Of a stretch of DNA of 64,000 nt, positions 8,466-36,715 are shown one piece after another. The notes under the pieces are model-generated. The model was not told the DNA's origin. It was given only the letters and a program-made list of their open reading frames with translations, and did not search any database. Position numbers and translations under genes: made by a program. Where the stretch lies: sequence record MW741821.1, one strand, 5' to 3'. The first letter of the stretch is position 1. Each line of letters begins with the position of its first letter. This DNA comes from Escherichia phage vB_EcoP_DE5.

Positions 8466-8490
8466 TGAGAGTTATCATATCTACTACCAA

Positions 8491-20168: not shown

Positions 20169-20177
20169 GATAACCTC

Positions 20178-20984
20178 TTATGCTACCTGAAGGAGTTTGA
20201 TCTGCTGGTCAGCTTCTTTAACGTTGTTCCCGTTAATGATTTCATGAAGCTTCTCAATCGGAAGGCGAGAGTGCAATGCCATCAGAGTGGACATATCACA
20301 CTGCTGAACAACCTTGTCAACCTGATCGTAAACAAACTTACGGTTTTCACGATCACTAATCCAGAAGTTAGACAGAGAGCGATATTCAATACCATAGTCT
20401 TTATAACGGATTGCAGATGCTTTACCGTAGAGTTCTTTACGGCGAGTATCTTTGTCCATAATTACTGCTGGGAGAGACAGGAAGTAGTCACACAGCACAC
20501 CAAGCATCATCTGAGTTTGCAGAGTGATATCCAAAGCACCAACTACGCCAAGATGTACGTGACCACCGGCAGTACGAAGTCCCTTATTCTGAGAAGTCGG
20601 GGATGGGTTTTTCTGACCAGTGAAGGCGTTGAAATCAGGAGTGCACCCGAAGATGAACGCTGATTCATTAAAGGTCTTCATCTCTTCTTCAGTGAATATG
20701 TGAGAGCTAACACCTGGAGCTGTTTCCATGTCTAGTTTGTTCAGGACATTGTTAGTGAGATCGATACCACGTTGCATGTTATCGTTAAACGCTTCAAAAC
20801 CGCTCTGTGGGTCGATATCAAACTCAGCCAGTACGTTGTCCTCTTGAAGACGAACATCTTTAGCCAGAGCGATCTTATCGTCCTTAGAGCAGCCTAATAA
20901 ACCGGCTACAGAGGTGATGATACCGTTGCTAGTACGAACGAACATTTCAGGGTCAGAGCCGATGAGGAATTTGCGCTTAGTCAT
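20178..20984 (-). CDS. putative second amidoligase (GCS2-like)
   Basis: 268 aa; IGSDPEMF and GGHVHLG motifs. Confidence 0.4.
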   Translation of the reverse strand: MTKRKFLIGSDPEMFVRTSNGIITSVAGLLGCSKDDKIALAKDVRLQEDNVLAEFDIDPQSGFEAFNDNMQRGIDLTNNVLNKLDMETAPGVSSHIFTEEEMKTFNESAFIFGCTPDFNAFTGQKNPSPTSQNKGLRTAGGHVHLGVVGALDITLQTQMMLGVLCDYFLSLPAVIMDKDTRRKELYGKASAIRYKDYGIEYRSLSNFWISDRENRKFVYDQVDKVVQQCDMSTLMALHSRLPIEKLHEIINGNNVKEADQQIKLLQVA

Positions 20985-21948
20985 TGTAATACTCCACTAG
21001 TTCAGAAAAGAGAGATGAGATTGTGTTACCAACTTCTTCAAGAGTAAGACCGGAATCTGCTCCAGTTCTTTGAATCAGTCGGGATGTAAAGTTTTGTACT
21101 GTAATGTTTCCCAACTTGTCGTCTATTGATTCACGTTTGTGACCATAGCAGTTGGACCAGAGTCTTAACCACTCTGACATTGTTTCATACTCGTCCGGGT
21201 CTTGATCTTTAGCACGAGCAAATCTTCGTAAGGCATCTTGGTTATGGTTACGAACATAACCATTCTCGTTGTCGCCAACACCGAAGGGGTTTTGAACCCA
21301 TACTTGCTTCGTGTATTCATCAGAGTCTACAACCAAAGGAAGGAATGCTGCTGCTGACATATTGTTGTTGATAACAATAGAGGTGCTCTCGCTACTCCCA
21401 TTGGCTCTCCCTCGTTGAGACCATCCACCGAAGAAGTCACGACCCAACCCAGCTAACATTAGAGCGATGCCGATGCGTTTACGCTTCAGCCACTCTTCCC
21501 TGTCTTCAATTCCTTCTGCTAGGAAATCCATTCCACGATATTGCCCTTCCAGAATACTACGAAAGAGCATAAGTCCTGTGAAGATCTGATCTGCTGGATG
21601 CTCACGAAGGTTGACAGCAACACTATTCGCTGAAGTGATCGTAAATACGTCACGATAGCAAGACATGGAGTTCATAATGTCTGCTGTTTCAACCAAATTC
21701 TTTTCAATATCAGATGTAACATGACCATGAAAAGAGTGAGTCCAGTAATTCAACATCTCCAGTTGCAAGTTGATATCACGGTTGAAGCGACGATAGCGCC
21801 CTTCTTCCGTGATAACTTCACCATTAATGTCATTTACACACTGGCCTTGCATGTAGTTGTGGATACCGAAGCACCCACGACCTAAGAACTTCTGTTCCCC
21901 TAAATCCTGTTGAAGATTCAGAGGTACGATCGTTGTGGAGATTGACAT
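20977..21948 (-). CDS. hypothetical protein
   Basis: 323 aa ORF. Confidence 0.5.
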   Translation of the reverse strand: MSISTTIVPLNLQQDLGEQKFLGRGCFGIHNYMQGQCVNDINGEVITEEGRYRRFNRDINLQLEMLNYWTHSFHGHVTSDIEKNLVETADIMNSMSCYRDVFTITSANSVAVNLREHPADQIFTGLMLFRSILEGQYRGMDFLAEGIEDREEWLKRKRIGIALMLAGLGRDFFGGWSQRGRANGSSESTSIVINNNMSAAAFLPLVVDSDEYTKQVWVQNPFGVGDNENGYVRNHNQDALRRFARAKDQDPDEYETMSEWLRLWSNCYGHKRESIDDKLGNITVQNFTSRLIQRTGADSGLTLEEVGNTISSLFSELVEYYND

Positions 21949-21958
21949 AACTAACCTT

Positions 21959-23155
21959 TTATTTTCCTAAAAATAATCCGCTCATAACACCATCCCACTC
22001 AGAGGATGGAATCACTGAATACTCCGAACTTTGGTCCAGAGTCCCACTACTAAATCGCTGAACAATGTTGTAGATGTTGAACAGGTCTTTAGCCTCGGCA
22101 CGAATGCCGTAGATTAGCCTGTTAGCTGTTTTCTCATTTTTAGACACGCGACGGGTAAAGTTAACCAAAAGATTATCACCTTTAAGTATCTCTGACCCAT
22201 CTTTTACTAGATCGGGGTGCATCACTGGCAAGAACATTGAGTTGTTAACTCGTAATTCTGCTGTTTCATCATTCTCGTAATGAATCCACTTAAAGTCTTC
22301 ATCACGGAAGTGACCACACCCGTCTCTGTACGACTGCTGACGCCAAGGTACTTGAAATGCTTCAGCATACTTATCAGCCATGCCAACCGTAAATAGCGAC
22401 GCTGGGAAGATACAAGCGTCCCAATCGTTACCAACCAGAGTAGCTTTCGTTTCACCCAAGAGGTTAGTGTAGGTACTAACCATTCGTGAGTAAACGTAAG
22501 CCTGAAGGATTGTCCAGCCTTCAACCAACCATTTGTGGAGGAAGGTTTCAACTTGACTCTCTTCATCTTCACAATAGAAGGTTCGATCTAACATCAAATA
22601 GAATAGACAACGATCAGCAGGAACATTTTCAGTTGCTACCCCCATAAAACCTTTATCGTGCCAGCGTAAACAGGAGGGACGATCTTTGTCCACAAATGCT
22701 TCCATAGCTTCCAGTACAGCACGAGGTGTGGTTCGATGTTCAGGGTTTTTGTCGTTCCAACGTTCAATGTTATTCTTAGGGGGCGTGTCTTCATCTTCAT
22801 ACGAACACCAACTTAAAGCTTCAGCTACATGCTTTTCATCACGCCAACGTCTAAAGCCTAACATCTTCATATGAGTTCCAGAGTTCCAGATATGCTTGAT
22901 TTTACACATATCCATCTCTCGGCTTAACAGGAACTCTTCCCCATCAGCACTACGAACGTTAGCTTCTTCATGCCACACTCGAACGTGCATATTCCATCCA
23001 TGAGTGGCCTCATACATGTTAGGGTCGAAGTAGTCATCATCTTCGTCGTCTTCATCAACGCCGCCATTATAGTTGCGAAGTTGAAGGAATCCATAACAAG
23101 GAGGACTAACCGTTAAAACATTACCTTCAGTATCTTCTAATGTTACTGGAAACAT
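21959..23155 (-). CDS. hypothetical protein
   Basis: 398 aa ORF. Confidence 0.5.
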   Translation of the reverse strand: MFPVTLEDTEGNVLTVSPPCYGFLQLRNYNGGVDEDDEDDDYFDPNMYEATHGWNMHVRVWHEEANVRSADGEEFLLSREMDMCKIKHIWNSGTHMKMLGFRRWRDEKHVAEALSWCSYEDEDTPPKNNIERWNDKNPEHRTTPRAVLEAMEAFVDKDRPSCLRWHDKGFMGVATENVPADRCLFYLMLDRTFYCEDEESQVETFLHKWLVEGWTILQAYVYSRMVSTYTNLLGETKATLVGNDWDACIFPASLFTVGMADKYAEAFQVPWRQQSYRDGCGHFRDEDFKWIHYENDETAELRVNNSMFLPVMHPDLVKDGSEILKGDNLLVNFTRRVSKNEKTANRLIYGIRAEAKDLFNIYNIVQRFSSGTLDQSSEYSVIPSSEWDGVMSGLFLGK

Positions 23156-23166
23156 TATACCAACCT

Positions 23167-23529
23167 CTATTGGTTTTTAATCAACTCGATCGATTTACGG
23201 ATATAGAGAATATCTCGGAAGTTTCGATAGTTGTTCATAAATTGATGCTTCTGAAACTCTGCTTCAAGTAGGGCTTCTTTAGCACTTTCGTAGTTCTTAC
23301 GGGCAAGATGTACAACCCGCTCCGGTAACATATTTGCACGACGGATGATATACTTGTGAGCTTTCATGTTGCTTTGCTCACGAGTAATCTTACCTTTAGC
23401 AACTTTGATACCATTTGCAATCCAAGCAAGTTCTTGCTCAAGCTCATCGTTGGACATTCCACCGAGATTTGATGCAACCTTGTTCAGAGTTTCAATATTA
23501 ACGTTGCCCTTAATGGGACGTGTATTCAT
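23167..23529 (-). CDS. hypothetical protein
   Basis: 120 aa ORF. Confidence 0.5.
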   Translation of the reverse strand: MNTRPIKGNVNIETLNKVASNLGGMSNDELEQELAWIANGIKVAKGKITREQSNMKAHKYIIRRANMLPERVVHLARKNYESAKEALLEAEFQKHQFMNNYRNFRDILYIRKSIELIKNQ

Positions 23530-23531
23530 AC

Positions 23532-23684
23532 TTACTCCTGTTGTTTACACTCGTCAATAACCCACTGATAAGTGGATTGCCCAGAAAAGAAACACTGAAT
23601 AAATCCAGATGTTCTCTGCGTTACCAGTGCTAGTGCACAAATCACTACCGCTGCTGCTAGCAGTTTTAAATCTAATTTAGACAT
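23532..23684 (-). CDS. small membrane/secreted protein
   Basis: 50 aa hand-translated (MSKLDLKLLAAAVVICALALV...), hydrophobic N-terminus. Confidence 0.35.
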   Translation of the reverse strand: MSKLDLKLLAAAVVICALALVTQRTSGFIQCFFSGQSTYQWVIDECKQQE

Positions 23685-23701
23685 ATTTCCTCTCATTGAA
23701 T

Positions 23702-23728
23702 TTAAAAAAGGACTCTCCGAAAAGAGTC
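23702..23728 (-). terminator. Rho-independent terminator (minus strand)
   Basis: Hairpin GACUCU-UUUCGG-AGAGUC followed by CUUUUUU. Confidence 0.55.
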
Positions 23729-23920
23729 AAGCTTTAAATCCAAAAAAGATATTACCCAATATCTGTGGATAACCTGCTCTTAAAATATCTATCCGACGGA
23801 TGTTCGAGGAATATTCCTCTCTTTAGCATCGGCCCCATACGGGAAATATATTAAGATTAGGTTAGTTGAGTCAGAATAACTCACATAGCCCTCCGAAGAA
23901 GGCTATAGGCGTTACTACAA

Positions 23921-24139
23921 CTAAAAATCACCTGATTTTACAAAATCATCACTAAGAATTTCGTCAATCTCTTTGCCGGTCAAATCTTTCCTGAACCAGC
24001 AACAAGGAACATTCACCCATTGACCAGAGTTGTTCTCTACAGAGCATAGATTCCCTGTCTTACTCTTGCATTTATAAGATTTTCCTTTATCTAGGCGATA
24101 GTGTAATCTGTAAACTACAGACACAAGTGTTATCATCAC
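23921..24139 (-). CDS. hypothetical protein
   Basis: 72 aa ORF. Confidence 0.4.
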   Translation of the reverse strand: MMITLVSVVYRLHYRLDKGKSYKCKSKTGNLCSVENNSGQWVNVPCCWFRKDLTGKEIDEILSDDFVKSGDF

Positions 24140-24369
24140 TCACCTTTCTTAGCACGATCTTTGGCAGTTTTGCCAGTGCGGATGCGATGAGAAACGTTAA
24201 CCAGAGTGCCACCATCAACTACGGTAACGCTCTTATTTTTAGCCAGATCAAACACAGTCTTCTCTGTACCACCCAAGCGAATTTGCTTAGGTTCGCTGAA
24301 GGTTTGGGTTGATTTGGATTGGAACTGAAACGGTTGACGGATTGCATCGATTGCGCTTACTTTAGACAT
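24136..24369 (-). CDS. hypothetical protein
   Basis: 77 aa; AAGGAA SD. Confidence 0.45.
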   Translation of the reverse strand: MSKVSAIDAIRQPFQFQSKSTQTFSEPKQIRLGGTEKTVFDLAKNKSVTVVDGGTLVNVSHRIRTGKTAKDRAKKGE

Positions 24370-24383
24370 AGGGGAAATTCCTT

Positions 24384-24419
24384 AAAAAATTATGGCTGCG
24401 TAGAGGGAATTCCCTACGC
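24384..24419 (-). terminator. hairpin plus U-tract (terminator-like) after conserved element
   Basis: GCGUAGGGAAUUCCCUCUACGC hairpin then UUUUUU about 8 nt downstream. Confidence 0.4.
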
Positions 24420-24433
24420 AAATCGGGCCGCCC

Positions 24434-24462
24434 ACAGAGAGGCGTCATAGTACTAAAAGGAG
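24434..24462 (-). repeat. conserved 25-30 nt intergenic element (copy 1) containing TTTTAGTACTATGACGC
   Basis: Near-identical element at 31566-31597, each followed on the minus strand by a hairpin/U-tract. Confidence 0.5.
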
Positions 24463-24601
24463 GAGAGAAGAGGGCTTATTTAGCTACCTTTTTCTGTCCG
24501 TTTACGAACCAGATAATTGAACCGTCAGGCTGTCGTTGACCGAAGCCTTTCTGGTTAATCATATCGTCATAAGAATATGCTTTACGTCTCATTTGTTTTC
24601 C

Positions 24602-24856
24602 CTACGAAGTTAAGATGATTTCAGCCTTAATAAACTTCTCACCAACAACCATATCACCAGAGATGACACGTAGTTCTCCAGTGCCTAGGTTAACAGCTCC
24701 AGCAGGTTGACAACCCCTGCTTTTAGCTGTCATCATATAAACCTTTTGATTTTGGCACTCTTGGAGAGTGAACACATCTGACATATTTAGATCTCTGACG
24801 CGGAGGATTTTTTCCTCTTTGTCTTTAACTTTAATGTTAATAATGCTCATATGCAC
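24602..24856 (-). CDS. small protein, paralog family member
   Basis: 84 aa; tandem array, N-terminal K-rich segment followed by L..L..GDVF-like motif. Confidence 0.5.
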   Translation of the reverse strand: MHMSIINIKVKDKEEKILRVRDLNMSDVFTLQECQNQKVYMMTAKSRGCQPAGAVNLGTGELRVISGDMVVGEKFIKAEIILTS

Positions 24857-25101
24857 TACTCCTGAACCACTGACATACGAATCATTTCTACCTGATCATC
24901 AAGACCTTTAACAGATAACATACCTGTGGAAAGGTTTACCACAGGAACCCAACCACTGGCTATACGGATGTTACCAGAAGCATTTTCAACCCTCATGTAA
25001 TACTGAGGAGAGGCACTTCCGTTCTGAACCACGAAAGGGTTTCCGGGAATGATTGTTTCCAATCGTACCGTATTATCCTTTTTCTTTGGGATGATTTTCA
25101 T
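24856..25101 (-). CDS. small protein, paralog family member
   Basis: 81 aa; MKIIPKKKDNTVRLETIIPGNPF. Confidence 0.5.
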   Translation of the reverse strand: MKIIPKKKDNTVRLETIIPGNPFVVQNGSASPQYYMRVENASGNIRIASGWVPVVNLSTGMLSVKGLDDQVEMIRMSVVQE

Positions 25102-25349
25102 TGCGTATTATCCACCAAAAGTTCTGCTGATACAGGAACAACTCGGCACCAGATAGAAGGTGCTGTTACGTTACCATCGGATAGACGAAGAGTAATTGTT
25201 CGATCAGAGTTAACGGTTACATTAGGACTTTCAGACACAGACCCTTTAACATAGAGAGTAGCACTCTCAGGGAATTTAAACACTGCTCCGCTGGGGAGGG
25301 AGTTGAGATCAATCGTGGTCACTTCTTCTTTCTTGTGGGTAATCTTCAT
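25098..25349 (-). CDS. small protein, paralog family member
   Basis: 83 aa; MKITHKKEEVTTIDLNSLPSGAVF. Confidence 0.5.
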   Translation of the reverse strand: MKITHKKEEVTTIDLNSLPSGAVFKFPESATLYVKGSVSESPNVTVNSDRTITLRLSDGNVTAPSIWCRVVPVSAELLVDNTQ

Positions 25350-25600
25350 TTAGAATCCTTAATAACGTTAGCTTCAACCTTAACAGGAATAACAGAGATG
25401 CCCTCAACGGGGCCACTTAAGTGTCCATCTTCCAGTCTGACACACACGACTCGATCTCGTGCAACTTCTACCCAATTAGTAGATGCCGCAGTACAGACCA
25501 TATGAATTGGACCGTTCTCTTCCAGCCGGAAGGTATCGCCCTTCTTCAGAGTGTGGAGTTTCACAGTCTTGATAGTTTTGTTCAATTCGTTAACTTTCAT
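25346..25600 (-). CDS. small protein, paralog family member
   Basis: 84 aa; MKVNELNKTIKTVKLHTLKKGDTF. Confidence 0.5.
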   Translation of the reverse strand: MKVNELNKTIKTVKLHTLKKGDTFRLEENGPIHMVCTAASTNWVEVARDRVVCVRLEDGHLSGPVEGISVIPVKVEANVIKDSK

Positions 25601-25608
25601 ATTGATTC

Positions 25609-25920
25609 CTATTTAAGTTTGAGGCTAATGTTAAGGTGCATACATGCTCTGTTCTGTACAGCAGCATAACTTCTACCGAGCATGTCAGCCATTCTCTGAA
25701 TAGACATGAACCCAGCATTACGGATAAGGAACTGGTCCTCTTCTTCAGACCATTTAACTCGGATTGAAGCTCTTGATATGCCGAATTTAGTGCAAGCTGT
25801 GTTAACAGCATTCTCCGTTACATTCATAATCTGAGCTACTTCTTGAACCGAGTACTCTTTGATTAGTCTCCGAAGATTTTCAATCTGCATCGGAGTCCAT
25901 ATAGTTCTTCGTGCTTTCAT
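25609..25920 (-). CDS. DNA-binding protein with two tandem Myb/SANT-like helix-turn-helix repeats
   Basis: 103 aa; two W-[TS]-x-E-E-D...L repeats (RRTIWTPMQIENLRRL... and VKWSEEEDQFLIRNAG...). Confidence 0.5.
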   Translation of the reverse strand: MKARRTIWTPMQIENLRRLIKEYSVQEVAQIMNVTENAVNTACTKFGISRASIRVKWSEEEDQFLIRNAGFMSIQRMADMLGRSYAAVQNRACMHLNISLKLK

Positions 25921-26415
25921 ACATCCTCCAATTAATTGTTAAAACTATCAGGGGAGAACACTAGCTCTGGGCCACGCTGTAGATATTGGCCTACCTTCCA
26001 CAGCTAATCAGCTAATATACTCCCCTAATAGTTTATGAATAGGGGGAGGGGACGAATCCTCCCTTATCCTATTAGTTAATATTGCATGTAAGATCTAACA
26101 ATCGGTTGCCTTTGTAGGAATAAGCGTAAAGCCAATCCAGCACTAAACTCCCGCCCCCTTAGTGGGCTGGGTTATTAAAGGGTAACGCCCTTATGGGCTA
26201 GTTACATGAATGTTAGTTTGATAGGAGATCTGAAGTCCTATCTCAAAGGACTCTCGTAAGAATCCTTCACGATATTACTTATTCATCTCTCGTCGGCTAT
26301 CTCTCCAAGCCAACCAAGTGTAGGTTTTCAGTTCTTCAAAGTCTTCTGGAGAGAATAGATACTCTTTGAAGGTGTTCCCAAACCACTCTAAAAATTCTTC
26401 AGTCATAAGATTCTC

Positions 26416-26589
26416 TTAACAAGATTGGTCACACGGCTGATCACCACATGTTTTACAGATCACTGGTGAGTAACTACAGGCAGGATAAACAGACACCCCA
26501 TCAAACGTCTCACATCCACAATCAGGACATGTACCGTTGGATTCCATGTCATCATCGTCATCTACTTCACCGCCACCAAAACAACTCAT
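26416..26589 (-). CDS. small acidic Cys-rich protein
   Basis: 57 aa hand-translated (MSCFGGGEVDDDDDMESNGTCPDCGC...), AAGGAG SD; below track cutoff. Confidence 0.4.
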   Translation of the reverse strand: MSCFGGGEVDDDDDMESNGTCPDCGCETFDGVSVYPACSYSPVICKTCGDQPCDQSC

Positions 26590-26598
26590 ACAGGCTCC

Positions 26599-26820
26599 TT
26601 AGTAAACTAAACCTGTAGCCTTTGCATCAGGCTGAGGGACTACTTTTGCACTAGGGCGATAGCCATCCACTGAGCCGTTCCAAAGATTGACACAGGTGAT
26701 ATATCCATCGTCTATGATGTCTGTTTTAATCCAGAAGTGTTTATCATGACCAAAAATACTTCCGTTTGGCAGCGTGGACAATTCAACAGTTTTAAGTGAC
26801 TGCTTAGAGTCTAGTTTCAT
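26599..26820 (-). CDS. small protein, paralog family member
   Basis: 73 aa; MKLDSKQSLKTVELSTLPNGSIF. Confidence 0.5.
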   Translation of the reverse strand: MKLDSKQSLKTVELSTLPNGSIFGHDKHFWIKTDIIDDGYITCVNLWNGSVDGYRPSAKVVPQPDAKATGLVY

Positions 26821-26829
26821 ATAAGTTCC

Positions 26830-27027
26830 TTAATATACCAAACCATGTAAAAGAAACATCCTCTTTGTAAGCTCTGCTTTAGCTCTGTAATAAGCCTTAG
26901 AACCTAACAGGCGGCTCTTAACAAAGAACTTAATGTCATTGCTAACATCTTGTATTAAACGCTCCTGTACAGTTTCTGAGGAGTTATTAATCGAATCAAT
27001 TAACACCTTTGTAGATGTGTAATTCAT
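26830..27027 (-). CDS. hypothetical protein
   Basis: Track ORF 26830-27219 trimmed to internal Met with AAGGAG SD (65 aa). Confidence 0.4.
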   Translation of the reverse strand: MNYTSTKVLIDSINNSSETVQERLIQDVSNDIKFFVKSRLLGSKAYYRAKAELTKRMFLLHGLVY

Positions 27028-27028
27028 A

Positions 27029-27328
27029 TCACCACTCCTTACCGGTTGTAATCGTAGAGCCACCACACCACAATGCTGTATCAATAACAACATTATCCGG
27101 TGTAGACTTCTCTTCGTTGATAGAAGGGTTAGCATTAGAACAGGTTGCTCCGTTCCATCGCATATCAATTTCACCAGAAGGAATCTTCTCACCCTTATGC
27201 CAGCGAGAAACACAAACACCTTCCACTGCTACTGCACACCATCCATCAGGACGGCTCTGTACGCAGCCTGTAAGGGCTATGCAGACAAGGAAGATACAGA
27301 TTAAGGATATTACACCACCCCAACTCAT
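27029..27328 (-). CDS. predicted lipoprotein
   Basis: 99 aa; signal peptide with lipobox ALTGC; AGGAGGT SD. Confidence 0.6.
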   Translation of the reverse strand: MSWGGVISLICIFLVCIALTGCVQSRPDGWCAVAVEGVCVSRWHKGEKIPSGEIDMRWNGATCSNANPSINEEKSTPDNVVIDTALWCGGSTITTGKEW

Positions 27329-27348
27329 AATTACCTCCTATTAGATTT

Positions 27349-27440
27349 GGTGGACTATCTGGAATCGAACCAGAAGCTCACTAAGAAAGTAATTCCCACT
27401 GTTATAAAAGCACTTGCCTCAACAGGGATACACTAACTCT
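27349..27440 (-). other. tRNA-like element (T-arm present; full cloverleaf not resolved)
   Basis: Minus-strand UCUGG-UUCGAUU-CCAGA T-arm followed by UAGUCCA-CCA, but no matching 5' acceptor strand found by hand. Confidence 0.3.
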
Positions 27441-27468
27441 GGTGCCGCACCCATACTAGCCCTAAATG

Positions 27469-27544
27469 TGGTGCGCCCTACAGGACTCGAACCTGTAACC
27501 AATAGCTTAGAAGGCTACTGCTCTATCCATTGAGCTAAGAGCGC
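27469..27544 (-). tRNA. tRNA-Arg (anticodon TCT)
   Basis: Hand-folded: acceptor GCGCTCT/AGGGCGC, D-arm GCTC-AATGGATA-GAGC, anticodon stem GTAGC/GCTAT with loop CTTCTAA, T-arm ACAGG-TTCGAGT-CCTGT, discriminator A, encoded CCA. Confidence 0.85.
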
Positions 27545-27719
27545 AGAATTATTTAGATCATATCTCGCTTGGTGATATGACCACATGTTTTACATCGAAG
27601 TATATAACGAGTACCTGTGTCTTCTATTTGACCAATCTCATTATATATGTGTAAACGAACTTCTTTTATTGTCTCCCAATCATGCAGATGGAATAGACGT
27701 TTAAACCACTTGAACATAA

Positions 27720-27953
27720 TTACACCACCTCAACGAGAGATGTTTTCCATGCAAACAGAGGTCCATTATCGTTAAGATAAACAGCTCCTCCCGTCTCGAA
27801 CGGAGTCCCATAAGGAAGTGCCCAAGCATACCCACGAATTTCTGGCTTATGGGTAAACCCATATACCTCGCCGTTGCTATCAGTTGCTAAATATCTTATA
27901 GAGCTGTCCACTTTAACAACTTCGCCAAAATATTTAACCTCTTTTCCTTTCAT
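27720..27953 (-). CDS. hypothetical protein
   Basis: Track ORF trimmed to MKGKEVKYF Met with GAGG SD. Confidence 0.45.
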   Translation of the reverse strand: MKGKEVKYFGEVVKVDSSIRYLATDSNGEVYGFTHKPEIRGYAWALPYGTPFETGGAVYLNDNGPLFAWKTSLVEVV

Positions 27954-27960
27954 ATTAACC

Positions 27961-28212
27961 TCAAGCACAAGCAGGGAGTGTGATGATTTTATGCTTACCA
28001 TCAAATTCTCCAAATAAACCTAAGAATGTGGGACTGTAAGTTCCAGTACAAACAAACTCATCAAACAATGCGTTATAACTAGGCTTGATCTTCCAAGCCC
28101 ATACATAACCCATCTTGTCAATTGCAATGTAACGAGTGTTCAGAGGAACAGTCATCATTATACCATCAACTTCGATCACTTTAGTGATTGGTGCAGCTTG
28201 GAAGTTTTTCAT
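27961..28212 (-). CDS. hypothetical protein
   Basis: 83 aa ORF. Confidence 0.45.
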   Translation of the reverse strand: MKNFQAAPITKVIEVDGIMMTVPLNTRYIAIDKMGYVWAWKIKPSYNALFDEFVCTGTYSPTFLGLFGEFDGKHKIITLPACA

Positions 28213-28385
28213 ACTTTACCTTTGATAAAAATGTCATTACCACAGACACAGCATGAACGAACAACAGTAGCGCCACGCTGAACAATACGAACCTCTTCCT
28301 TAACCAGACTAATACGAGCACCGCAGCAAGGAGAGTTGACATAAGAGTAACCAGCTTGCGTATGTTTGATTATTTGCTTAGACAT
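28209..28385 (-). CDS. small zinc-ribbon protein
   Basis: 58 aa hand-translated (…SPCCGAR…SCCVCGN…); ATGA overlap with downstream gene. Confidence 0.4.
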   Translation of the reverse strand: MSKQIIKHTQAGYSYVNSPCCGARISLVKEEVRIVQRGATVVRSCCVCGNDIFIKGKV

Positions 28386-28731
28386 TTGATTCTAGATCTC
28401 TTAGTTGTTCAGCCAATTGTTCGCATTCATTAACGCAGAACTCTTCTGTTCTTGGTATCCCGTTAGGGTTGAACCGTGTCTTATCACCTGCATGGGCACA
28501 ATCAAATCCGATTGTATCTAAACCACCCATCTCTTCAAGGGTGTCTTGCCATGTGACACCACCATGAACACTTACATAACAAACCTCTTCCTTTCCGTTA
28601 TATCCGGTGAAGTTTTTATGTTTTAAGCTGTCTGGTAGCTCTACATATCCACAAAAATGGGAGTCGTTCATGTGCATAATCACAGCACGAAGACCTGATT
28701 TAGTGACCCAATCTTTAACCATGCGTCTCAT
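28378..28731 (-). CDS. hypothetical protein
   Basis: Track ORF trimmed to MRRMVKDW Met with GGTG SD (117 aa). Confidence 0.45.
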   Translation of the reverse strand: MRRMVKDWVTKSGLRAVIMHMNDSHFCGYVELPDSLKHKNFTGYNGKEEVCYVSVHGGVTWQDTLEEMGGLDTIGFDCAHAGDKTRFNPNGIPRTEEFCVNECEQLAEQLRDLESNV

Positions 28732-28769
28732 ATAAGCACCTCTTGTTAGTTTAAGTAAGAGTTGTCCCT

Positions 28770-28803
28770 TAATTAAAACAACAAAGGCCACCCGAAGGCA
28801 GCC
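28770..28803 (-). terminator. Rho-independent terminator (possibly bidirectional)
   Basis: Hairpin GGCUGCC-UUCG-GGUGGCC with U-rich tracts on both sides. Confidence 0.55.
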
Positions 28804-29311
28804 TTTTATTTATTAACTGTTATACGTCCAATTACCTTGCTTGTTACGGATGGCTGACATTGCATGAATCCAAAAGCCTTCCAGTTTCAGAGCACCATTA
28901 GCTACTGCATCCATACGTTCAGGGCGGTTCATACGTTTGGTTGATACTTTCATACCTATCTCTCTTTGTTAGTGGAGGCATTATTGCCAGTTGATATAAG
29001 GGATAGCCCTAGTCAGTAGACTAACCCTGACCGCGTACTCATTGCCGACCTTCTCTGCCTAAGAGTTCAGGTTCTAGAGCTATCTCTTATTCCAACTGGT
29101 GAAGACTCCCTACCCCTAGGAAGTCTCCTGAATCCCAAACCAATACGTACCCCTACATATCGGAAAGTCTTTCGAAAATTAACAGGTTTTAGTCTAACAC
29201 CGGATGTTCGAGCAAGCTCTCCCTAGCGGTGTGGCATATGCCTGAATTAATAAGTTAATGAGGAACACCCTCACATAGCCCTCTGATAAACACAAGGGCT
29301 ATAAGTCGGTG

Positions 29312-29530
29312 TTACTTTTGGGATAAACACAGATCAGGTCGTGGCATAACAGTGGTTGATAGACCGAAGACTTCAACAGAACCACTGCTCAAGTTAGCAG
29401 CCTTACACAAACCATCAGGGGTTTTATCTTCTAGCATCAGCCAGAAACGTTTATCATAAGAGAAAACATCACCACCTTTAACGTCCTCTGCATTTGCATA
29501 TTTAGGATAATCAACTACTTTAATTTCCAT
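29312..29530 (-). CDS. small protein, paralog family member
   Basis: 72 aa; ...AEDVKGGDVFSYDKRFW. Confidence 0.5.
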   Translation of the reverse strand: MEIKVVDYPKYANAEDVKGGDVFSYDKRFWLMLEDKTPDGLCKAANLSSGSVEVFGLSTTVMPRPDLCLSQK

Positions 29531-29540
29531 CTAATTGCCC

Positions 29541-29759
29541 TTATTGATATATAGAAAGGTGGATAAGTTTATTAACATGAGCGAAGTTAGGAAGGATTTG
29601 CATCTCATTGTTGAAGATATTAAAACAACGAACCCCGCCCTCTACAGCATAAGCAGATTTCTGAAACAGACTGCCTCCCCACACAAATACATCATGTGTT
29701 TCAAGAGATCGTAACTGAACAGCCTCGTCAACAACCTTCTTTTCAATGTTCATATTCAC
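29541..29759 (-). CDS. small protein, paralog family member
   Basis: 72 aa; ...LRSLETHDVF. Confidence 0.5.
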   Translation of the reverse strand: MNMNIEKKVVDEAVQLRSLETHDVFVWGGSLFQKSAYAVEGGVRCFNIFNNEMQILPNFAHVNKLIHLSIYQ

Positions 29760-30007
29760 TTCCGATTGGTAATTACTGCATCATGGATAACTGAAACAGG
29801 TAAGTTTGAATCTAGCTTCATTACTTGATTGGTGCTTAAACTGAGCACTACACAACCATTCCGAAGATCAGTCTCTGACACATGTGGTGTATATAACTGA
29901 ACGATCATGTAATAATCAATACATGTTGCCTTAACTTGGAATACATCACCAAGTTTCAAATCACCCACACACAATTCTTTAGCTTTCATCTCAAGATCAA
30001 TCTTCAT
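29756..30007 (-). CDS. small protein, paralog family member
   Basis: 83 aa; ...VGDLKLGDVFQV. Confidence 0.5.
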   Translation of the reverse strand: MKIDLEMKAKELCVGDLKLGDVFQVKATCIDYYMIVQLYTPHVSETDLRNGCVVLSLSTNQVMKLDSNLPVSVIHDAVITNRK

Positions 30008-30233
30008 CTTTAGCCTCTATGTTGGTTATGTGAAGATCACTACGTACTTGGCAGACTTCATCCCGTTTAAAAGGCATGAGCTTTCCAGTTACCACATCAA
30101 CACAGTTGACATAATTGTCTGCGTACAATGTGTCGGTTCTGATGTAAAGGGATTCTTTACGCTCAAACAGAACCCCCGGCTTCATGTTATTTAAGCGAAG
30201 CATTGTACGATCGGATTTAATATTAACTTTCAT
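29997..30233 (-). CDS. small protein, paralog family member
   Basis: 78 aa; ...LNNMKPGVLFER. Confidence 0.5.
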   Translation of the reverse strand: MKVNIKSDRTMLRLNNMKPGVLFERKESLYIRTDTLYADNYVNCVDVVTGKLMPFKRDEVCQVRSDLHITNIEAKDED

Positions 30234-30235
30234 CT

Positions 30236-30493
30236 TTAATCCACCTTATTGGTAAGTCGAGCATTATCAACTACCTGAACAACAGTATCTTTTCTCAACA
30301 TTGTTATTCTATCCGAAGTGAGATCTACTACTACTCTTTCGTCAGGCTTCCAACTAGCTGAATAAACGGTTGAGGAATCTAGCTTTACTGTAAGATATAT
30401 TTTATTTTTAGGTGGAACAGTTTCAAAAACACTCCCCACCTTCAGGTCTTTCAGTTGCTTGACTACAGGGGCTGTATTAATATCATGCTTCAT
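30236..30493 (-). CDS. small protein, paralog family member
   Basis: Trimmed to MKHDINT Met with AGGAG SD; ...LKDLKVGSVFETV. Confidence 0.5.
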   Translation of the reverse strand: MKHDINTAPVVKQLKDLKVGSVFETVPPKNKIYLTVKLDSSTVYSASWKPDERVVVDLTSDRITMLRKDTVVQVVDNARLTNKVD

Positions 30494-30779
30494 TGTTAAT
30501 CTCCTGCTGTTTAGCAATAGCCACTCGCAAGTCTTCATTAGCACGAGCAAGGCGTAACACTTCGTGGTTGAGGTTCTGAAGACGCTTGTTTCTGTCCTCT
30601 ACTTGCATAATAAGATCATTAAGTGTTACTTTAACTTTCTCATTATACATCTCATCCACTCGAACTAGGGATTTATACATTCTCTCCCAGCTTGCTGCTT
30701 TGTTTCTGAGAATAATAAATCCTAGAACGCTGATAGTTAAACAGCTTACAAAAAGGAATTTATATACTTCTAAAGTCAT
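30483..30779 (-). CDS. membrane-anchored coiled-coil protein
   Basis: 98 aa; N-terminal hydrophobic helix then heptad-like charged region. Confidence 0.45.
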   Translation of the reverse strand: MTLEVYKFLFVSCLTISVLGFIILRNKAASWERMYKSLVRVDEMYNEKVKVTLNDLIMQVEDRNKRLQNLNHEVLRLARANEDLRVAIAKQQEINNEA

Positions 30780-30978
30780 ATTATTTACCCTTTATCAGAG
30801 ATTAAAAGTAATATTATTTAAGTAAGTTATATTTAGTAAACTTATTTTCTAAGAAATTTTCAAAGGGTCTATATACAGAGCATTACCCATAGTCCCAGAA
30901 TACTGCCATCTTTTTCAATAAATTTACTAAGTGGTTGGTTTATAAAGGAATTTAGTTTGTCAAATCTGGCACTAGTGA

Positions 30979-31368
30979 TTATTCCCTAGAGCTATTATCG
31001 AACACTAAATCACCACAATACATAGGATTGGCATACCATTTTGGCACCCCTTCGCTCTTACTCTGAAAGTAAGTCCCACTGTACAGCGGAACATAATTCT
31101 TCTTAAGGGCACGTTTAGCTAGCCTCTCGCTTTCTCCAATGGCTTGCTTAGTCATCGGATTTTTATCACGAATCAGCTTTACATAACGTTTATAAGGTTT
31201 CTCCTGTTTTAATAGTACCGGAATCCACTCAAACTGGTTCTTTTGTCTTATCACCTGTTCAGCGGTCAGTTTTCGTTGGGCCATTCTATTTATCACGGTA
31301 TCCGCAACTAAAGCCTTACATGCGGTTGGCTGATTCCCTGCCTCATAATAAATAGTCAATGTCAACAT
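30979..31368 (-). CDS. cell wall hydrolase (SleB-like)
   Basis: 129 aa; EAGNQPTACKALVADTVINR resembles the conserved N-terminal block of SleB-type hydrolases. Confidence 0.55.
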   Translation of the reverse strand: MLTLTIYYEAGNQPTACKALVADTVINRMAQRKLTAEQVIRQKNQFEWIPVLLKQEKPYKRYVKLIRDKNPMTKQAIGESERLAKRALKKNYVPLYSGTYFQSKSEGVPKWYANPMYCGDLVFDNSSRE

Positions 31369-31502
31369 TAGCTGTGCCGTTGTTATCAGAACTTGATACC
31401 TCCTGTTTTACGGGCATAAAAAAGCCCCAGCCGTAGCCGGGGCAAACCTGAAAGCAACACATGACCGTTGCTATAAATACACTCGCAAATGCACTTACAG
31501 CA

Positions 31503-31528
31503 ACGCAAAAAGCCGCTCAAAGGCGGCT
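31503..31528 (-). terminator. Rho-independent terminator (minus strand)
   Basis: Hairpin AGCCGCC-UUUGA-GCGGCU followed by UUUUUG. Confidence 0.55.
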
Positions 31529-31565
31529 ATGCGGAAGCTTCAAATGGGGAGAGGGCACGACGCGA

Positions 31566-31597
31566 CAGAAAGAGCGTCATAGTACTAAAAAGAGAGG
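31566..31597 (-). repeat. conserved 25-30 nt intergenic element (copy 2) containing TTTTAGTACTATGACGC
   Basis: Matches 24434-24462 with a few transitions; followed on the minus strand by terminator 31503-31528. Confidence 0.5.
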
Positions 31598-31758
31598 CTA
31601 TTGGAGAGGTTACTTATTGCCTTCCTTAATGCCTTGTTTTCTTGTTTAACCAATTCGTTTTCTTCTTGCAAGGATGCTACCAGATGGACCAGAACATCAA
31701 CTACTGCATCACCTTGCCGCATCTCTCTGACTTTATTTAGAATCTCTGAATAAATCAT
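31585..31758 (-). CDS. small hypothetical protein
   Basis: 57 aa hand-translated (MIYSEILNKVREMRQ...); ATGA overlap with upstream gene stop. Confidence 0.35.
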   Translation of the reverse strand: MIYSEILNKVREMRQGDAVVDVLVHLVASLQEENELVKQENKALRKAISNLSNSLSF

Positions 31759-32198
31759 TTTACCCTCGCCTCTTTGATGGGGTCGATGTATTTCTCAACG
31801 CCCCACTTGTGTTTACTATCTGCGTAGAAAACATCAGGTGCACATTGGCTTGTTTTAGGGAAGGCTTGCGGGTCTTTCGTGCTCCCCTTAAACTTCTGTT
31901 TACCTCGAGTGCGACCATTACAGAAGATTTCTAACTTCTTCTCCTCTTCTGTTTTAGCTCCCCCGCTCTGTAACAAAGAACGTTTATGATCAGCTAACAA
32001 CAACGCATCAGCCCGATGGACACGATGGCCTACACGTTTTGCCACACTGGAAGGAACATGGGATTCAGCCTCAGCCTTTGCAGCACGACGTTTTAAACTA
32101 CGCTTACTAACGTGATTAGTTGCCTTCGGTTTCTCTTTCTCCAGTTCAGAGATAGAAAAACAACGCCCGCCCTTCATGCTGATTTTTGATTTAGCCAC
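31755..32198 (-). CDS. basic hypothetical protein
   Basis: 147 aa, Lys/Arg-rich. Confidence 0.5.
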   Translation of the reverse strand: MAKSKISMKGGRCFSISELEKEKPKATNHVSKRSLKRRAAKAEAESHVPSSVAKRVGHRVHRADALLLADHKRSLLQSGGAKTEEEKKLEIFCNGRTRGKQKFKGSTKDPQAFPKTSQCAPDVFYADSKHKWGVEKYIDPIKEARVK

Positions 32199-32267
32199 AA
32201 TCTTATTCCTTTCAGTGATAAGTTATATCGGGCAAGCCCATCAAGTCGATAGGCTTGAACAAATAAC

Positions 32268-32477
32268 TTAATCAAGTAAACTAAATGACTTCCAACTGCG
32301 TAGCAGGATTGTACCATCATCCATAACTACACTTAATTGCAATAGTTTTTTGTTGCAACTACTCACCGTTGTAATTCGTCCGGTTGTACTTTTACCTTTA
32401 TTGCTGTAAAGATATACAACACGACGGCCTAACAAGCGGGAAGGTGCTTTCTTAAATGCTGAAATGTTAGTGATCAT
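32268..32477 (-). CDS. hypothetical protein
   Basis: 69 aa; ATGA coupling with upstream ORF. Confidence 0.4.
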   Translation of the reverse strand: MITNISAFKKAPSRLLGRRVVYLYSNKGKSTTGRITTVSSCNKKLLQLSVVMDDGTILLRSWKSFSLLD

Positions 32478-32698
32478 AATGCTTGATACCTTTGAATGTG
32501 TTCAATACGGGTGGATTGAGCAAATGACGCTTTAACAGCCATTTTCCTAACTTCTTCTTTACGCTGGTTAGTGTGTACAGTATCCCAATGATTGTTATCA
32601 CGTTGGCGCTGTAATATCTTACTACATTTGCGATGGTTTCCCGTGCTGCGATGTTTCTCACAAATAGGACACTTGCCAAAATTACTACTGAATATCAT
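32474..32698 (-). CDS. small zinc-finger protein
   Basis: 74 aa; CPICEKH...HRKC. Confidence 0.4.
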   Translation of the reverse strand: MIFSSNFGKCPICEKHRSTGNHRKCSKILQRQRDNNHWDTVHTNQRKEEVRKMAVKASFAQSTRIEHIQRYQAL

Positions 32699-32922
32699 TT
32701 TCTCAATCCCAGCTTTCTTAAGATACGGCCTAACGTTGTTTCTTGCGTGATAATATAGCTGATCGCTTCACGTTCCAATGTTTCAATCTTCATTGGCGAC
32801 GGATACCATTCACCGGTAATAACACATTTACATTCAACGCCATACTTTTTAGATAGGCGGTAATGTTGACCGTTGACAAGATTTCTATAAATCGTGGTAT
32901 GTGTAATTAACATGATCGTCAC
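32695..32922 (-). CDS. hypothetical protein
   Basis: 75 aa ORF. Confidence 0.4.
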   Translation of the reverse strand: MTIMLITHTTIYRNLVNGQHYRLSKKYGVECKCVITGEWYPSPMKIETLEREAISYIITQETTLGRILRKLGLRK

Positions 32923-32965
32923 CTTTGATTAGATTCTTTGATTAATGCACTGAATCAATGCACTG

Positions 32966-33000
32966 ATAAAAGAAAAGGCGCTACCCGTTAAGATAGCGCC
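32966..33000 (-). terminator. Rho-independent terminator (minus strand)
   Basis: Hairpin GGCGCUA-loop-UAGCGCC followed by UUUUCUUUUAU. Confidence 0.55.
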
Positions 33001-33024
33001 TTATGTTTATTCAAATTGTCTTAC

Positions 33025-33933
33025 TTATGCCGCCTGACGTGCCGCCATAATTTCAGCCGCTTTACGCAACACTTCTTCCTCTTCTGCTTTCGCCGCTTGT
33101 TCGGTACGGGTAGCAACCGTTGAAGAGATACGACCGCGCAGACTTTCTAACTTCTCCTGCATAGCTGCAACAGTCTTTTCCATTTCATCAGCGTATGAAT
33201 CGAGTGATTCTAATTCCTTGCTTGATGCGTTCATCAGATAATCATCCGAGATCGCTACCGTTGAGGCCGTGACTTTCTTGATGAGTGAATCAAAGGACTT
33301 TTTAACCTTCCCAACTTCTTCACTCAGGGCGATAGTGTTATCGCTAGTTGCGCCGTTGCGCTCATCAGCCAGTAATTTGGCTTCAATACGGATTGCATTC
33401 AAGCGTTCAACTAAAGCGTAAATATCCTGATTAAAATCTTCCTTGTTTTTCGCCGGAATTTGCAGGTGTGCCGCCACGTTGTCATTACAACCCTTGTAAA
33501 AGTTAGGGTTATCAACTTCAATTTCACGGCCTAAAGCAAAGTTTTCGAAAGCGTTTGACCAGCGAGCGCGGTTTTGTTCCATTTTGGCCTTAATTTGTGC
33601 TTCTTTCGCGTCTTCTTTAGCTTTCGCCTCACCTTCCAGATTAATCCACTTTTTACGACCATTTGCCGCATCGGTGTTAAACTTGATAGGAGTTAAGAAA
33701 GTAATTGCAGTGGCAATCACATCCATATCACGAAAACGTTCAGTTAACAAGAAGTCAACCGCCGTCTGCAATACGTCCAGCTTTTTACCGTTACTGCGGA
33801 AGTGCTGCAAGTGCCCTAACAGGAAGTTAGAAACATCTTGTTTGATCGCCGCGTTATTGCTACGAATGTTGTTAGCCAGTGCGTTAAAACCAGATTCTTT
33901 TACCAGATTAAAGATTTTAGCCATGATATTCAC
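33025..33933 (-). CDS. hypothetical protein (first gene of the minus-strand arm)
   Basis: 302 aa ORF adjacent to the central ORF-free region. Confidence 0.55.
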   Translation of the reverse strand: MNIMAKIFNLVKESGFNALANNIRSNNAAIKQDVSNFLLGHLQHFRSNGKKLDVLQTAVDFLLTERFRDMDVIATAITFLTPIKFNTDAANGRKKWINLEGEAKAKEDAKEAQIKAKMEQNRARWSNAFENFALGREIEVDNPNFYKGCNDNVAAHLQIPAKNKEDFNQDIYALVERLNAIRIEAKLLADERNGATSDNTIALSEEVGKVKKSFDSLIKKVTASTVAISDDYLMNASSKELESLDSYADEMEKTVAAMQEKLESLRGRISSTVATRTEQAAKAEEEEVLRKAAEIMAARQAA

Positions 33934-34747
33934 CTTTCAATTGTAAGGGCGCTATTGCCCCGCTCTCTATGAGCTTGTTTAAGTCACTATTAACTTAACT
34001 ATAACCGCTAACTATTCAGTAGTTATAGGTAAGTGGGGCGGTCTTATCAGGAGTTAACCTTGCCGCCCCCTTATCCGTGATGTTTCATCTGGTATCTTTA
34101 ATTAGTCGCTATAAACGAAGCCGACCTGATAGCGATGATCAATCATCACAATAAGGCAGTGCGTCCGACTCTAATTAGTTACGTTATTGTAACCGTCGGC
34201 AATATCGTTTACTTTGCTTTCGCTCTCGCCTATCCTTTTATATCAACTCTCAATCGCTAGTCATCGCCCACTACGGGATACTATTGCGAAAGAGTCATTG
34301 ACCGTCTAATGTTCCGACGTTTTATATCTTTCGGCAAGTTTACTACATAAACCGACTATGTACTTTCATCATAAGATGAATCTCAAGCCGTTCACATCGT
34401 AAACGTTCACACTAAACCTTATTGTTAAATAGCAATTTGCCACTTTTTAACCACTCCCCGCCGCTCTCAATTGAGCGTTAATTCGTCGGGATTGCCTACC
34501 CTGATTAACTTCTTTCACCGTAGCACCATGTTAGCGATGACCGCCGCTACCCTTAACCGTGGGCGATTAGCTTAAGCCTTTGCGTGTACTCGATGAATCT
34601 GTTTATCAGTGGTGACGTTTCCAGTAAGGGAATGTAAAACTGTTTACCCTGATAATTTAGGGAGTTTTACGCCGTTTTATCTGGTATGTTATCCGATGGT
34701 TATTATCATCTAACATATTCAACCGATATAGGAGAATGTTTAAATTA

Positions 34748-35372
34748 TTAAAGAGCGGTAAATCTATCAGTGTGCTTTCTCACACTATGCAACTGTTAGC
34801 CGTTGTTACGCTTTTCACTGAAGCGATGATTTGCTTAGTGAGTGCTCATTATGAATCATGTTGTTTTCGCTGTCAACCGCTTTTTAATCTTTTTTCGTCG
34901 TTCCCGCTATTGGGAGGATATATCAATCAGCTTTATTTGATTGAAGATTAAGCGGTGAGGCTTAACTTATGACTCATATTGTTAAAGAGCGTTTAGCCTT
35001 TTAAAGTGTCTGCTAATCACTGTCACATTGAAGGCTTACTGATTCATTAACAGGCCGCCTACACCTGAACTAATCGCTGCACTATGTGCCACCTTTCCCG
35101 CGATACGTTGATTTGGGAACTAGTTAGCGATGTTTTGCTAACTTGTGGTTAGTATGGACTACTTTAACCACGTTTGCAACTCTTTTTATCATCTTCTTTT
35201 AATTCCTTTCCCTTATCTCGCGTGAATCTATGCGAAAGGGCAAGATGATAAGTTTTTAAAGAGCGGGATTTTTTAAGTCATCGCTGACTATGCTCACTAT
35301 ATATCAGGCTTTTTCTGGTGTCAATACTCTTTTTAAGTATTTTCACTTTCTAGCCTGATTTTTAAAGAGCGG
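34748..35372. repeat. four dispersed copies of TTAAAGAGCG(G) within an ORF-free region
   Basis: Copies at 34748-34758, 34982-34991, 35246-35256, 35362-35372; no ORF of 60 aa or more between 33950 and 35700 except one short frame. Confidence 0.55.
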
Positions 35373-35603
35373 GGCAAGTTTCCTTGCCTTGTATGTTTTT
35401 CATCGTACCCGATGAATTGAAGTATACGCCAACCAATGTGTAATGCAATAGGGTAAAGCAAATTATTTTAAACTTTTTCATAGTGGGATAGGTAAAAGAA
35501 CGCGCACGCGTGATACATCATAGAAAATAGCTTGTAAAGCATTATTTAACGGCCTGTAACGCATCACAACGAGCTAAAGGAGGGTAAGGAATACAATCAC
35601 CTT

Positions 35604-35632
35604 AGAAATGAGAAAAGCCTCACTAGGAGGCT
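35604..35632 (-). terminator. Rho-independent terminator (minus strand)
   Basis: Hairpin AGCCUC-CUAGUG-AGGCU followed by UUUCUCAUUUCU. Confidence 0.5.
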
Positions 35633-35709
35633 TACAGGAAGGATTTAAAGCAACAGATACAGTAGGACCATAGGCATGACTACGGCACAATATAGGAGAA
35701 AGATTAAGC

Positions 35710-36087: not shown

Positions 36088-36172
36088 CTATAGTTAGAGA
36101 ATATAAGAATAAAGCATATCAGCGACGAATAACGCCACTGTAACGACGAACAAGCAACGCCAAAAATAATCA

Positions 36173-36689: not shown

Positions 36690-36715
36690 TTTTTACACTC
36701 CCAAAAATAGATTAT

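Follow-up and report, generated by a model that had tools for sequence, protein, structure and literature searches.

Phage phiEco32 carries a leftward early cluster that is transcribed from host sigma70 promoters at its start. This cluster is described as more diverse than any other region of the genome, and its functionally uncharacterized genes are presumed to act in host takeover (PMC8948821, PMC9965538). Near it lies the gene for gp79, a small (~82 aa) RNA polymerase inhibitor that binds a host protein (PMC8948821). Multi-copy small early genes are a familiar phage theme. Here we analyze ten such genes, at positions 24602-30493 of a 64,000-nucleotide stretch of the genome of Escherichia phage vB_EcoP_DE5 (MW741821.1; this whole stretch is called the window, and coordinates are its positions unless another sequence is named). 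The ten are a lineage-specific expansion of a widespread, uncharacterized phage family, here named N4 gp21-like, of SH3/Tudor/KOW-like barrels of ~70-85 residues. Like these proteins, gp79 is a small protein of the same phage group, but it does not belong to the family, as the family hidden Markov model (HMM) does not match the gp79 ortholog region of the window.

Positions 24000-31000 are 99.8% identical to Escherichia phage SkaterBoy_Bas90 (PQ850626.1, 77,534 bp, BASEL collection; hereafter Bas90), and many phiEco32-like podoviruses (Gordonclarkvirinae, genus Kuravirus) match them at 90-97% identity, in alignments of 5-11 pieces. All ten open reading frames (ORFs) are found at the coordinates that a preliminary description made from the sequence alone had given; they lie on the minus strand and are labeled in PQ850626.1 as hypothetical proteins Bas90_0091-0094, 0098, and 0109-0113. 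They are arranged as four genes (24602-25600), a singleton (26599-26820), and five genes (29312-30493). The two tandem arrays of the preliminary description are therefore arrays of four and five genes, while the tenth gene, which it had counted within them, stands apart. Between the arrays are unrelated small genes and a tRNA-Arg(TCT) at 27469-27544. Packing is as tight as had been described, with start/stop overlaps of 4 or 11 nucleotides (nt) or gaps of 2-10 nt between neighboring family genes. As a diversified multi-copy family, the ten make up about one in 13 of the ~130 Bas90 genes, 3.1% of the 77.5-kb genome, and ~1/4 of the early cluster.

Homology of the ten proteins

The ten proteins are only 16-27% identical to one another in pairwise comparison (MAFFT), and BLAST gives no significant score for several pairs, as would be expected if their resemblance reflected chance or composition. 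In a database of the ten sequences, and naming each gene by its first coordinate, the significant pairs are 25098/25346 (E 5e-12), 26599/29312 (2.5e-10), 26599/29997 and 29756/30236 (2e-6), and 29997/30236 (3e-5). Pairwise BLAST leaves 24602, 24856, and 29541 weakly connected; profile searches tie in all three. In PHROGs, the ten fall in seven families of 'unknown function' (12612, 7431, 7832 twice, 6570 twice, 33163, 9955 twice, and 16423) with matches at E 8e-55 to 3e-26, and cross-family matches connect all of them.

We searched leave-one-out HMMs against the 478 ORFs of the window together with 2,390 shuffled decoys. Nine of the ten members were recovered, with E values from 1e-8 to 2e-4; the remaining one, 29541-29759, scored E 0.28, yet ranked above all non-members. 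An independent HMM, built only from 119 relatives outside the window, none more than ~30% identical to 29541-29759, matched exactly the ten (E 8e-20 to 4.5e-8), with the best non-member ORF at E 0.45. HMM search of the window and of the 36 kb of the genome outside it found no eleventh copy. The alignment and HMM building that the preliminary description had proposed as a check thus show that the shared motifs are significant, with decoy controls passed, and the ten-member paralog family is real by PHROG cross-matches, leave-one-out HMMs, and the independent HMM.

We built ortholog groups from the regions of six kuraviruses (phiEco32, Paul, ev_rybdy8, WFI101126, ES17, and Bas90). The ratio of nonsynonymous to synonymous substitution rates (dN/dS, Nei-Gojobori) stays between 0.00 and 0.26 in each of the ten groups, where dS reaches 1.26, which marks them as coding genes kept by purifying selection. 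Most of the ten have a recognizable Shine-Dalgarno sequence upstream. The preliminary description would have been undone by ORFs that are not translated, and this codon comparison speaks directly against that. Taken with the HMM statistics, the decoy controls, and the confident, mutually concordant predicted folds of two paralogs (see below), it effectively refutes the reading of the family as chance similarity or untranslated ORFs, to which we give almost no weight. The ten genes, with E values from the independent HMM, are as follows.

24602-24856, minus strand: member 1, Bas90_0091; PHROG 12612; phiEco32 gp95 ortholog; E 3.7e-14; dN/dS 0.19
24856-25101, minus strand: member 2, Bas90_0092; PHROG 7431; phiEco32 gp96 ortholog; E 4.1e-16; dN/dS 0.08
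25098-25349, minus strand: member 3, Bas90_0093; PHROG 7832; phiEco32 gp97 ortholog; 4-nt overlap with the neighbor's stop codon; E 1.2e-13; nearest paralog member 4; dN/dS 0.17
25346-25600, minus strand: member 4, Bas90_0094; PHROG 7832; E 1.1e-14; AlphaFold-modeled, all-beta; dN/dS 0.04
26599-26820, minus strand: member 5, the singleton, Bas90_0098; PHROG 6570; phiEco32 gp104 ortholog; E 8.1e-19; dN/dS 0.26; AlphaFold-modeled; tandem duplicate in ev_rybdy8
29312-29530, minus strand: member 6, Bas90_0109; PHROG 6570; phiEco32 gp113 ortholog; E 2.4e-15; dN/dS 0.06
29541-29759, minus strand: member 7, the most divergent, Bas90_0110; PHROG 33163; HDVF in place of GDVF; E 4.5e-8; PHROG 6570 cross-match at E 0.0026; in two of the six kuraviruses
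29756-30007, minus strand: member 8, Bas90_0111; PHROG 9955; phiEco32 gp114 ortholog; E 4.4e-14; dN/dS 0.14
29997-30233, minus strand: member 9, Bas90_0112; PHROG 16423; phiEco32 gp115 ortholog; E 8e-20; dN/dS 0.09
30236-30493, minus strand: member 10, Bas90_0113; PHROG 9955; E 4.7e-12; dN/dS 0.13

By the annotation of PQ850626.1, the first gene likely starts at ATG 24850, not GTG 24856, and 29541-29759 likely starts at ATG 29753. The start of the last gene at 30493 agrees with that record; its longest ORF reaches 30550.

Predicted fold, variable loop, and relatives

The family consensus is MKI..K...tv.L..L..GDVF...Y.......v.L.tG......V..V...L.I, and the Lys-rich start followed by L..L..GDVF that had been described for the ten is readily seen in the alignments. 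All ten members are free-standing, with an N-terminal M-K-I strand, a G-x-x-F turn, and a later L-x-x-G turn; one copy has N-P-F-V and one H-D-V-F. Among the relatives, 117 of 119 carry G-x-x-F within their first 40 residues. Over 129 aligned sequences, the only nearly invariant positions are M1, the G and F of the G-x-x-F turn, the second turn glycine, and one valine, and the remaining consensus positions are hydrophobic. No polar, catalytic, basic, or aromatic surface residue is conserved across this alignment, and the lack of a conserved polar or catalytic residue argues against an enzyme.

AlphaFold2 models of two paralogs agree with the beta-rich structure anticipated from the sequence. 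For 25346-25600 (63-sequence alignment), the model is all-beta, with a mean predicted local distance difference test score (pLDDT) of 85.6 and a predicted template modeling score of 0.74; for 26599-26820 (129-sequence alignment), it has five strands and a pLDDT of 84.5, with 93-97 in the core. The predicted structures are five-stranded, partly open beta-barrels that superpose on known SH3, Tudor, or KOW domains, and their top structural neighbors (uL2, EF-P, KOW, and PWWP) include many nucleic-acid binders. The likeness to SH3-like small beta-barrels (KOW, Tudor, PWWP, the uL2 C-terminal domain, EF-P/eIF5A domain I, the SH3-like domains of DtxR/FeoA, and the VapX antitoxin) is at the level of the fold only: sequence identity is only 7-18%, and the family is without a conserved aromatic cage, a KOW glycine motif, or a modified-lysine loop. 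None of the ten has a Pfam match above threshold, even to E 1, including to the KOW, Tudor, and PWWP models; profile search found no relative among PDB sequences; and nothing in Pfam, NCBIfam, or PHROGs assigns the family a function.

The most variable element is the loop between strands beta3 and beta4, which is 9-18 aa long and differs among paralogs in both length and sequence. Between Bas90 paralogs the loop is 8% identical, as against 76% within ortholog groups; the corresponding values for the core are 20% and 84%. Because it is divergent between paralogs yet kept within ortholog groups, the loop likely behaves as a selectively maintained, paralog-specific specificity determinant.

The same fold is common in virulent phages. 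Foldseek comparison with BFVD returned many uncharacterized proteins of ~60-120 aa (mostly ~65-100 aa), among them N4 gp21, PaP3 ORF65, and proteins of phages of Erwinia, Proteus, Dickeya, Serratia, Klebsiella, and Vibrio. A word-indexed sequence search found kuravirus orthologs only, and an exhaustive HMMER search of 1.84 billion representatives found 1,696 clusters at E <= 1e-3. Among the top 150 matches listed, most are free-standing proteins of ~66-99 aa with the M-K-I start and the G-x-x-F turn, and several are two-domain fusions. Giant matches (NHL, cadherin, and immunoglobulin-like proteins) were judged after a Pfam scan to be spurious matches to beta repeats and were set aside. A tblastn search of cultured phages with one relative (P0133) gave no match.

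The family HMM matches N4 gp21 at E 1.4e-18 and PaP3 ORF65 at E 1.6e-9. These two proteins and PHROGs 6570, 7832, 8365, 16423, 7431, 9955, 12612, and 33163 are homologues of the ten, with the same size, M-K-I start, G-x-x-F turn, and predicted fold. Individual clusters are thus already known as PHROG unknowns; PHROGs splits the family into at least eight, all of 'unknown function' and none with a described fold. Full-text literature searches found no paper describing the family, and its unity as one N4 gp21-like superfamily, its fold, its recurrent expansions, its link to SprT (below), and its specificity loop appear not to have been described in the searchable literature.

The top match of the exhaustive search is cellular, a SprT-like metallopeptidase of Tenacibaculum that contains the domain five times in tandem and is encoded in an ordinary chromosomal neighborhood of a metagenome-assembled genome (L016, 10001-11437). 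Profile-profile comparison (hhalign) of the phage family with the SprT repeats gave a probability of 96% and E 2e-9. A word-indexed search with the five repeats alone found no match; when the query joined the SprT domain to a single repeat, it found 1,942 proteins, the best 120 of which are SprT-like proteins of Tenacibaculum and Polaribacter, mostly 191-202 aa long (a few 266-337 aa), at 95-99% query coverage. An HMM built from phage sequences only matches all 120 of these, in their last ~50 residues. Flavobacteriia SprT-like metallopeptidases (P0296-P0415) carry one, two, three, or five tandem basic copies of this domain, which Pfam does not model, at the C-terminus.

The C-terminal domain of Flavobacteriia SprT-like proteins (PF10263) is therefore homologous to the phage copies, and the two versions differ in setting and charge. 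The SprT version is fused to a protease, chromosomal, and strongly basic (median isoelectric point (pI) 10.0), with the K/R-rich loop KRGNKRRTRY. The phage copies are free-standing and mostly neutral to acidic (family median pI 5.3; Bas90 copies pI 4.9-9.3 with net charge -2 to +3, four of them at pI 8.7-9.3), and the basic loop of SprT aligns exactly with their variable, often acidic beta3-beta4 loop. The ten are not themselves SprT-like metallopeptidases: none matches PF10263, and their 72-85 aa leave no room for the protease, so only the non-catalytic C-terminal domain is shared. The basic SprT homologue suggests that the ancestral scaffold may have bound nucleic acid.

Copy number, turnover, and early-region context

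Counted with the independent HMM, family copies vary widely among phages.

Bas90: 10 copies
phiEco32: 9 copies
Paul: 8 copies
ev_rybdy8: 11 copies
WFI101126: 8 copies
ES17: 9 copies
Suseptimavirus SU7: 4 copies
Klebsiella myophage 05F01: 3 copies
Vibrio phage 1.101.O: 2 copies, one of them weak
Vibrio phage Vp_R1: 1 copy
N4: 1 copy
PaP3: 1 copy
190-kb metagenomic phage contig SRR22868748_3398 (L024): 7 family ORFs within 12 kb, including the two-domain fusion P0161

N4 and PaP3 thus have one copy each, against ten in Bas90. The array on the metagenomic contig is an expansion independent of the kuravirus one; at 2962-9890 of that contig, family ORFs are interspersed with genes for DNA ligase, RNA ligase, SSB, Dam, and a glycosyltransferase.

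Of the types seen in the six kuraviruses, five are shared by all, five are present in 2-5 genomes, and four more are missing from Bas90. Some ortholog groups hold divergent alleles (54-58% versus ~100% identity), and ev_rybdy8 has an extra tandem copy of the 26599 type, 59% identical to it. The preliminary description had called the family rapidly evolving. This is true of gene content, with 8-11 copies, patchy types, divergent alleles, and a fresh duplicate, but not of sequence, given the dN/dS of 0.00-0.26 and paralogs that are deeply diverged. Only 25098/25346 and 26599/29312 are mutual closest relatives; the other Bas90 copies are no closer to one another than to non-kuravirus members. We therefore rejected a recent burst of duplication in place, and the array is either old or partly assembled by exchange.

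Three near-consensus promoters lie upstream of the arrays, in region 34848-37273.

37273-37246, minus strand: sigma70-type promoter, 11 of 12 consensus positions
35324-35296, minus strand: sigma70-type promoter, 11 of 12 consensus positions
34876-34848, minus strand: sigma70-type promoter, 11 of 12 consensus positions

These promoters probably drive leftward early transcription through the arrays, presumably by read-through. No gp36-type (phage-sigma) promoter motif was found in 23-38 kb; the phage-sigma motif of phiEco32, TAATGTATA, occurs only at 4087, 46773, and 63844. The ten genes thus lie in a leftward cluster downstream of sigma70-like promoters and without a gp36 promoter, as expected of early genes, and their phiEco32 orthologs, phi32_95-115, are inside the cluster reported as early (PMC8948821, PMC9965538). 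Terminator-like hairpins are in excess in 23000-38000 (25 seen versus 10.7 +/- 3.2 expected), so early transcription may be segmented or need antitermination. Strong minus-strand hairpins at 31443-31424, 33002-32975, 28806-28783, and 24421-24396 bracket the arrays.

Possible roles of the family

We propose that the ten proteins may be early, non-enzymatic binding modules, each paralog with a different target, that form a host-takeover or counter-defense toolkit; on the sequence evidence, we put this at roughly an even chance. In such a model, each copy would be a small binding module made early in infection, whose paralog-specific loop and surface would recognize differing host (or phage) macromolecules. 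Jointly, the copies would amount to a diversified toolkit, the composition of which would be reshuffled among related phages through gain, loss, and allele replacement. As the basic loop is lost and the phage copies are mostly neutral to acidic, protein targets are favored. Several observations weigh against this proposal. The SH3-like fold is uninformative on function, and early timing for Bas90 is drawn from the phiEco32 literature and promoter motifs. The genes show purifying selection and no gene-wide signal of positive selection, where a simple arms-race model predicts otherwise, and the presence of five types in every one of the six kuraviruses could point to housekeeping functions during phage development instead. 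Finally, four Bas90 copies have a basic pI (8.7-9.3), and the sole cellular relative resembles a nucleic-acid-binding tail, which leaves room for nucleic-acid targets.

A narrower version of the toolkit proposal, already raised in the preliminary description, is that the paralogs are dedicated anti-defense proteins and that each blocks its own bacterial immune system. In its favor, Gordonclarkvirinae show remarkable resistance to restriction-modification and to every defense system tested except Fun/Z, with no known inhibitor (PMC11990801); placement in the early cluster (PMC8948821) and gene content that differs between close relatives also fit. A weak hint in the same direction comes from two large phages unrelated to each other, Klebsiella phage 05F01 (L010, LC483177, 18361-21908) and Vibrio phage Vp_R1 (L011, 17965-22390), in which family members are interleaved with, or within a few kb of, genes for nicotinamide phosphoribosyltransferase (NAMPT) and phosphoribosyl pyrophosphate (PRPP) synthetase. 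We take this gene pair to resemble phage NAD+ reconstitution counter-defense modules, although the association comes from two genomes only. The authors of the BASEL collection explain restriction resistance more simply by possible DNA modification (PMC11990801), half of the types occur in every kuravirus compared and are under strong purifying selection, and comparison with Pfam, PHROGs, NCBIfam, and the PDB, which did not extend to a dedicated anti-defense library, found no similarity to characterized anti-defense proteins (Ocr, Ard, Acr, Tad, Gad, Acb, and the like). We therefore think it unlikely that the paralogs are dedicated to anti-defense. Another view is that the proteins bind nucleic acid, as the SprT C-terminal domain probably does, and work on the DNA or RNA of phage or host, for instance by controlling transcription or replication or by shielding DNA from nucleases. 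Homology to that domain (hhalign 96%, E 2e-9; HMM 120/120), its strongly basic character, nucleic-acid binders among the structural neighbors, and the four basic Bas90 copies all speak for binding of this kind. The very loop that is basic in SprT is replaced in phage copies by a variable, often acidic sequence, however, and the low family pI, the Bas90 net charge of just -2 to +3, and the absence of a conserved basic or aromatic surface residue make it a minority prospect in our judgment. That the paralogs are instead subunits of one hetero-oligomeric assembly, not independent effectors, would suit the tightly packed and probably translationally coupled array genes, the two-domain fusions of other phages, and the cellular versions with 2-5 tandem repeats; a copy number and composition ranging from 1 to 11 among phages, with a single copy in most, renders it improbable.

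The toolkit proposal can be extended to the family as a whole, in that the N4 gp21-like barrel may be an unrecognized 'adaptable binder' scaffold of virulent phages, repeatedly expanded, with each copy neutralizing a different host factor or immune system. We consider this extension speculative and probably too broad. An analogy is offered by the multigene families of large eukaryotic DNA viruses, such as the poxvirus ankyrin and Bcl-2-like families and MGF360/505 of African swine fever virus (ASFV), and by gene-amplification 'accordions'. In these too, a small binding scaffold is present as tandem arrays of diverged paralogs, which lie in variable regions of early or host-interaction genes and differ in copy number among strains; their fold and hosts are unrelated, and the Bas90 copies are ancient and individually constrained, not recent amplifications. 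If the adaptable-binder idea were true, bacterial viruses would have in this family their counterpart to the poxvirus and ASFV families, and it would explain the broad defense resistance of Gordonclarkvirinae.

Whatever the targets, bringing eight or more 'unknown' PHROGs together under a single fold, with a SprT link and a candidate specificity loop, gives a handle on phage 'dark matter', and the family recurs in the model phages N4, PaP3, and phiEco32 and in ~1,700 metagenomic clusters. Bas90 grows on E. coli K-12 with restored O-antigen and is experimentally tractable. Should the copies turn out to inhibit distinct host or immune factors, they would be a rich source of new effectors; should they prove to be housekeeping proteins, the reading of the 'variable early region' would be revised.

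Some further observations concern the surroundings of the family. Pseudomonas phage PaP3 (L021, 31903-43699) and the window (13700-30500) share a syntenic block of genes for gamma-glutamyl cyclotransferase, RimK-like ligase, GlmS-like aminotransferase, amidoligase, and COOH-NH2 ligase, which in PaP3 and the kuraviruses is followed by a small-ORF early region with a family member. Family members of ~77 aa in phages IMEP8 and EcoN5 are labeled 'endolysin' (records MZ648214, NC_070993, and NC_070986), and the 98-aa ORF at 30483-30779 (minus strand), directly upstream of the 29312-30493 array, is labeled 'DNA helicase' in PQ850626.1; all of these appear to be annotation errors. Other paralogs also occur in the window. 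A weak motif, RY(L/I)AxDxxGxV(Y/W)...KP (single-comparison E 2e-4), is common to two neighboring, overlapping small ORFs on the minus strand, 27720-28013 and 27961-28212, which may be another paralog pair in the early cluster. Two adjacent small genes at 2821-3105 and 3107-3361 are clear paralogs (minus strand; Bas90_0049/0050, in the replication-gene region; BLASTP E 1e-12, 31% identity over 91 aa), and the adjacent 'DNA ejection protein' genes at 60121-61173 and 61186-62154 (plus strand) are likewise paralogs (E 1e-10, 31% identity over 275 aa).

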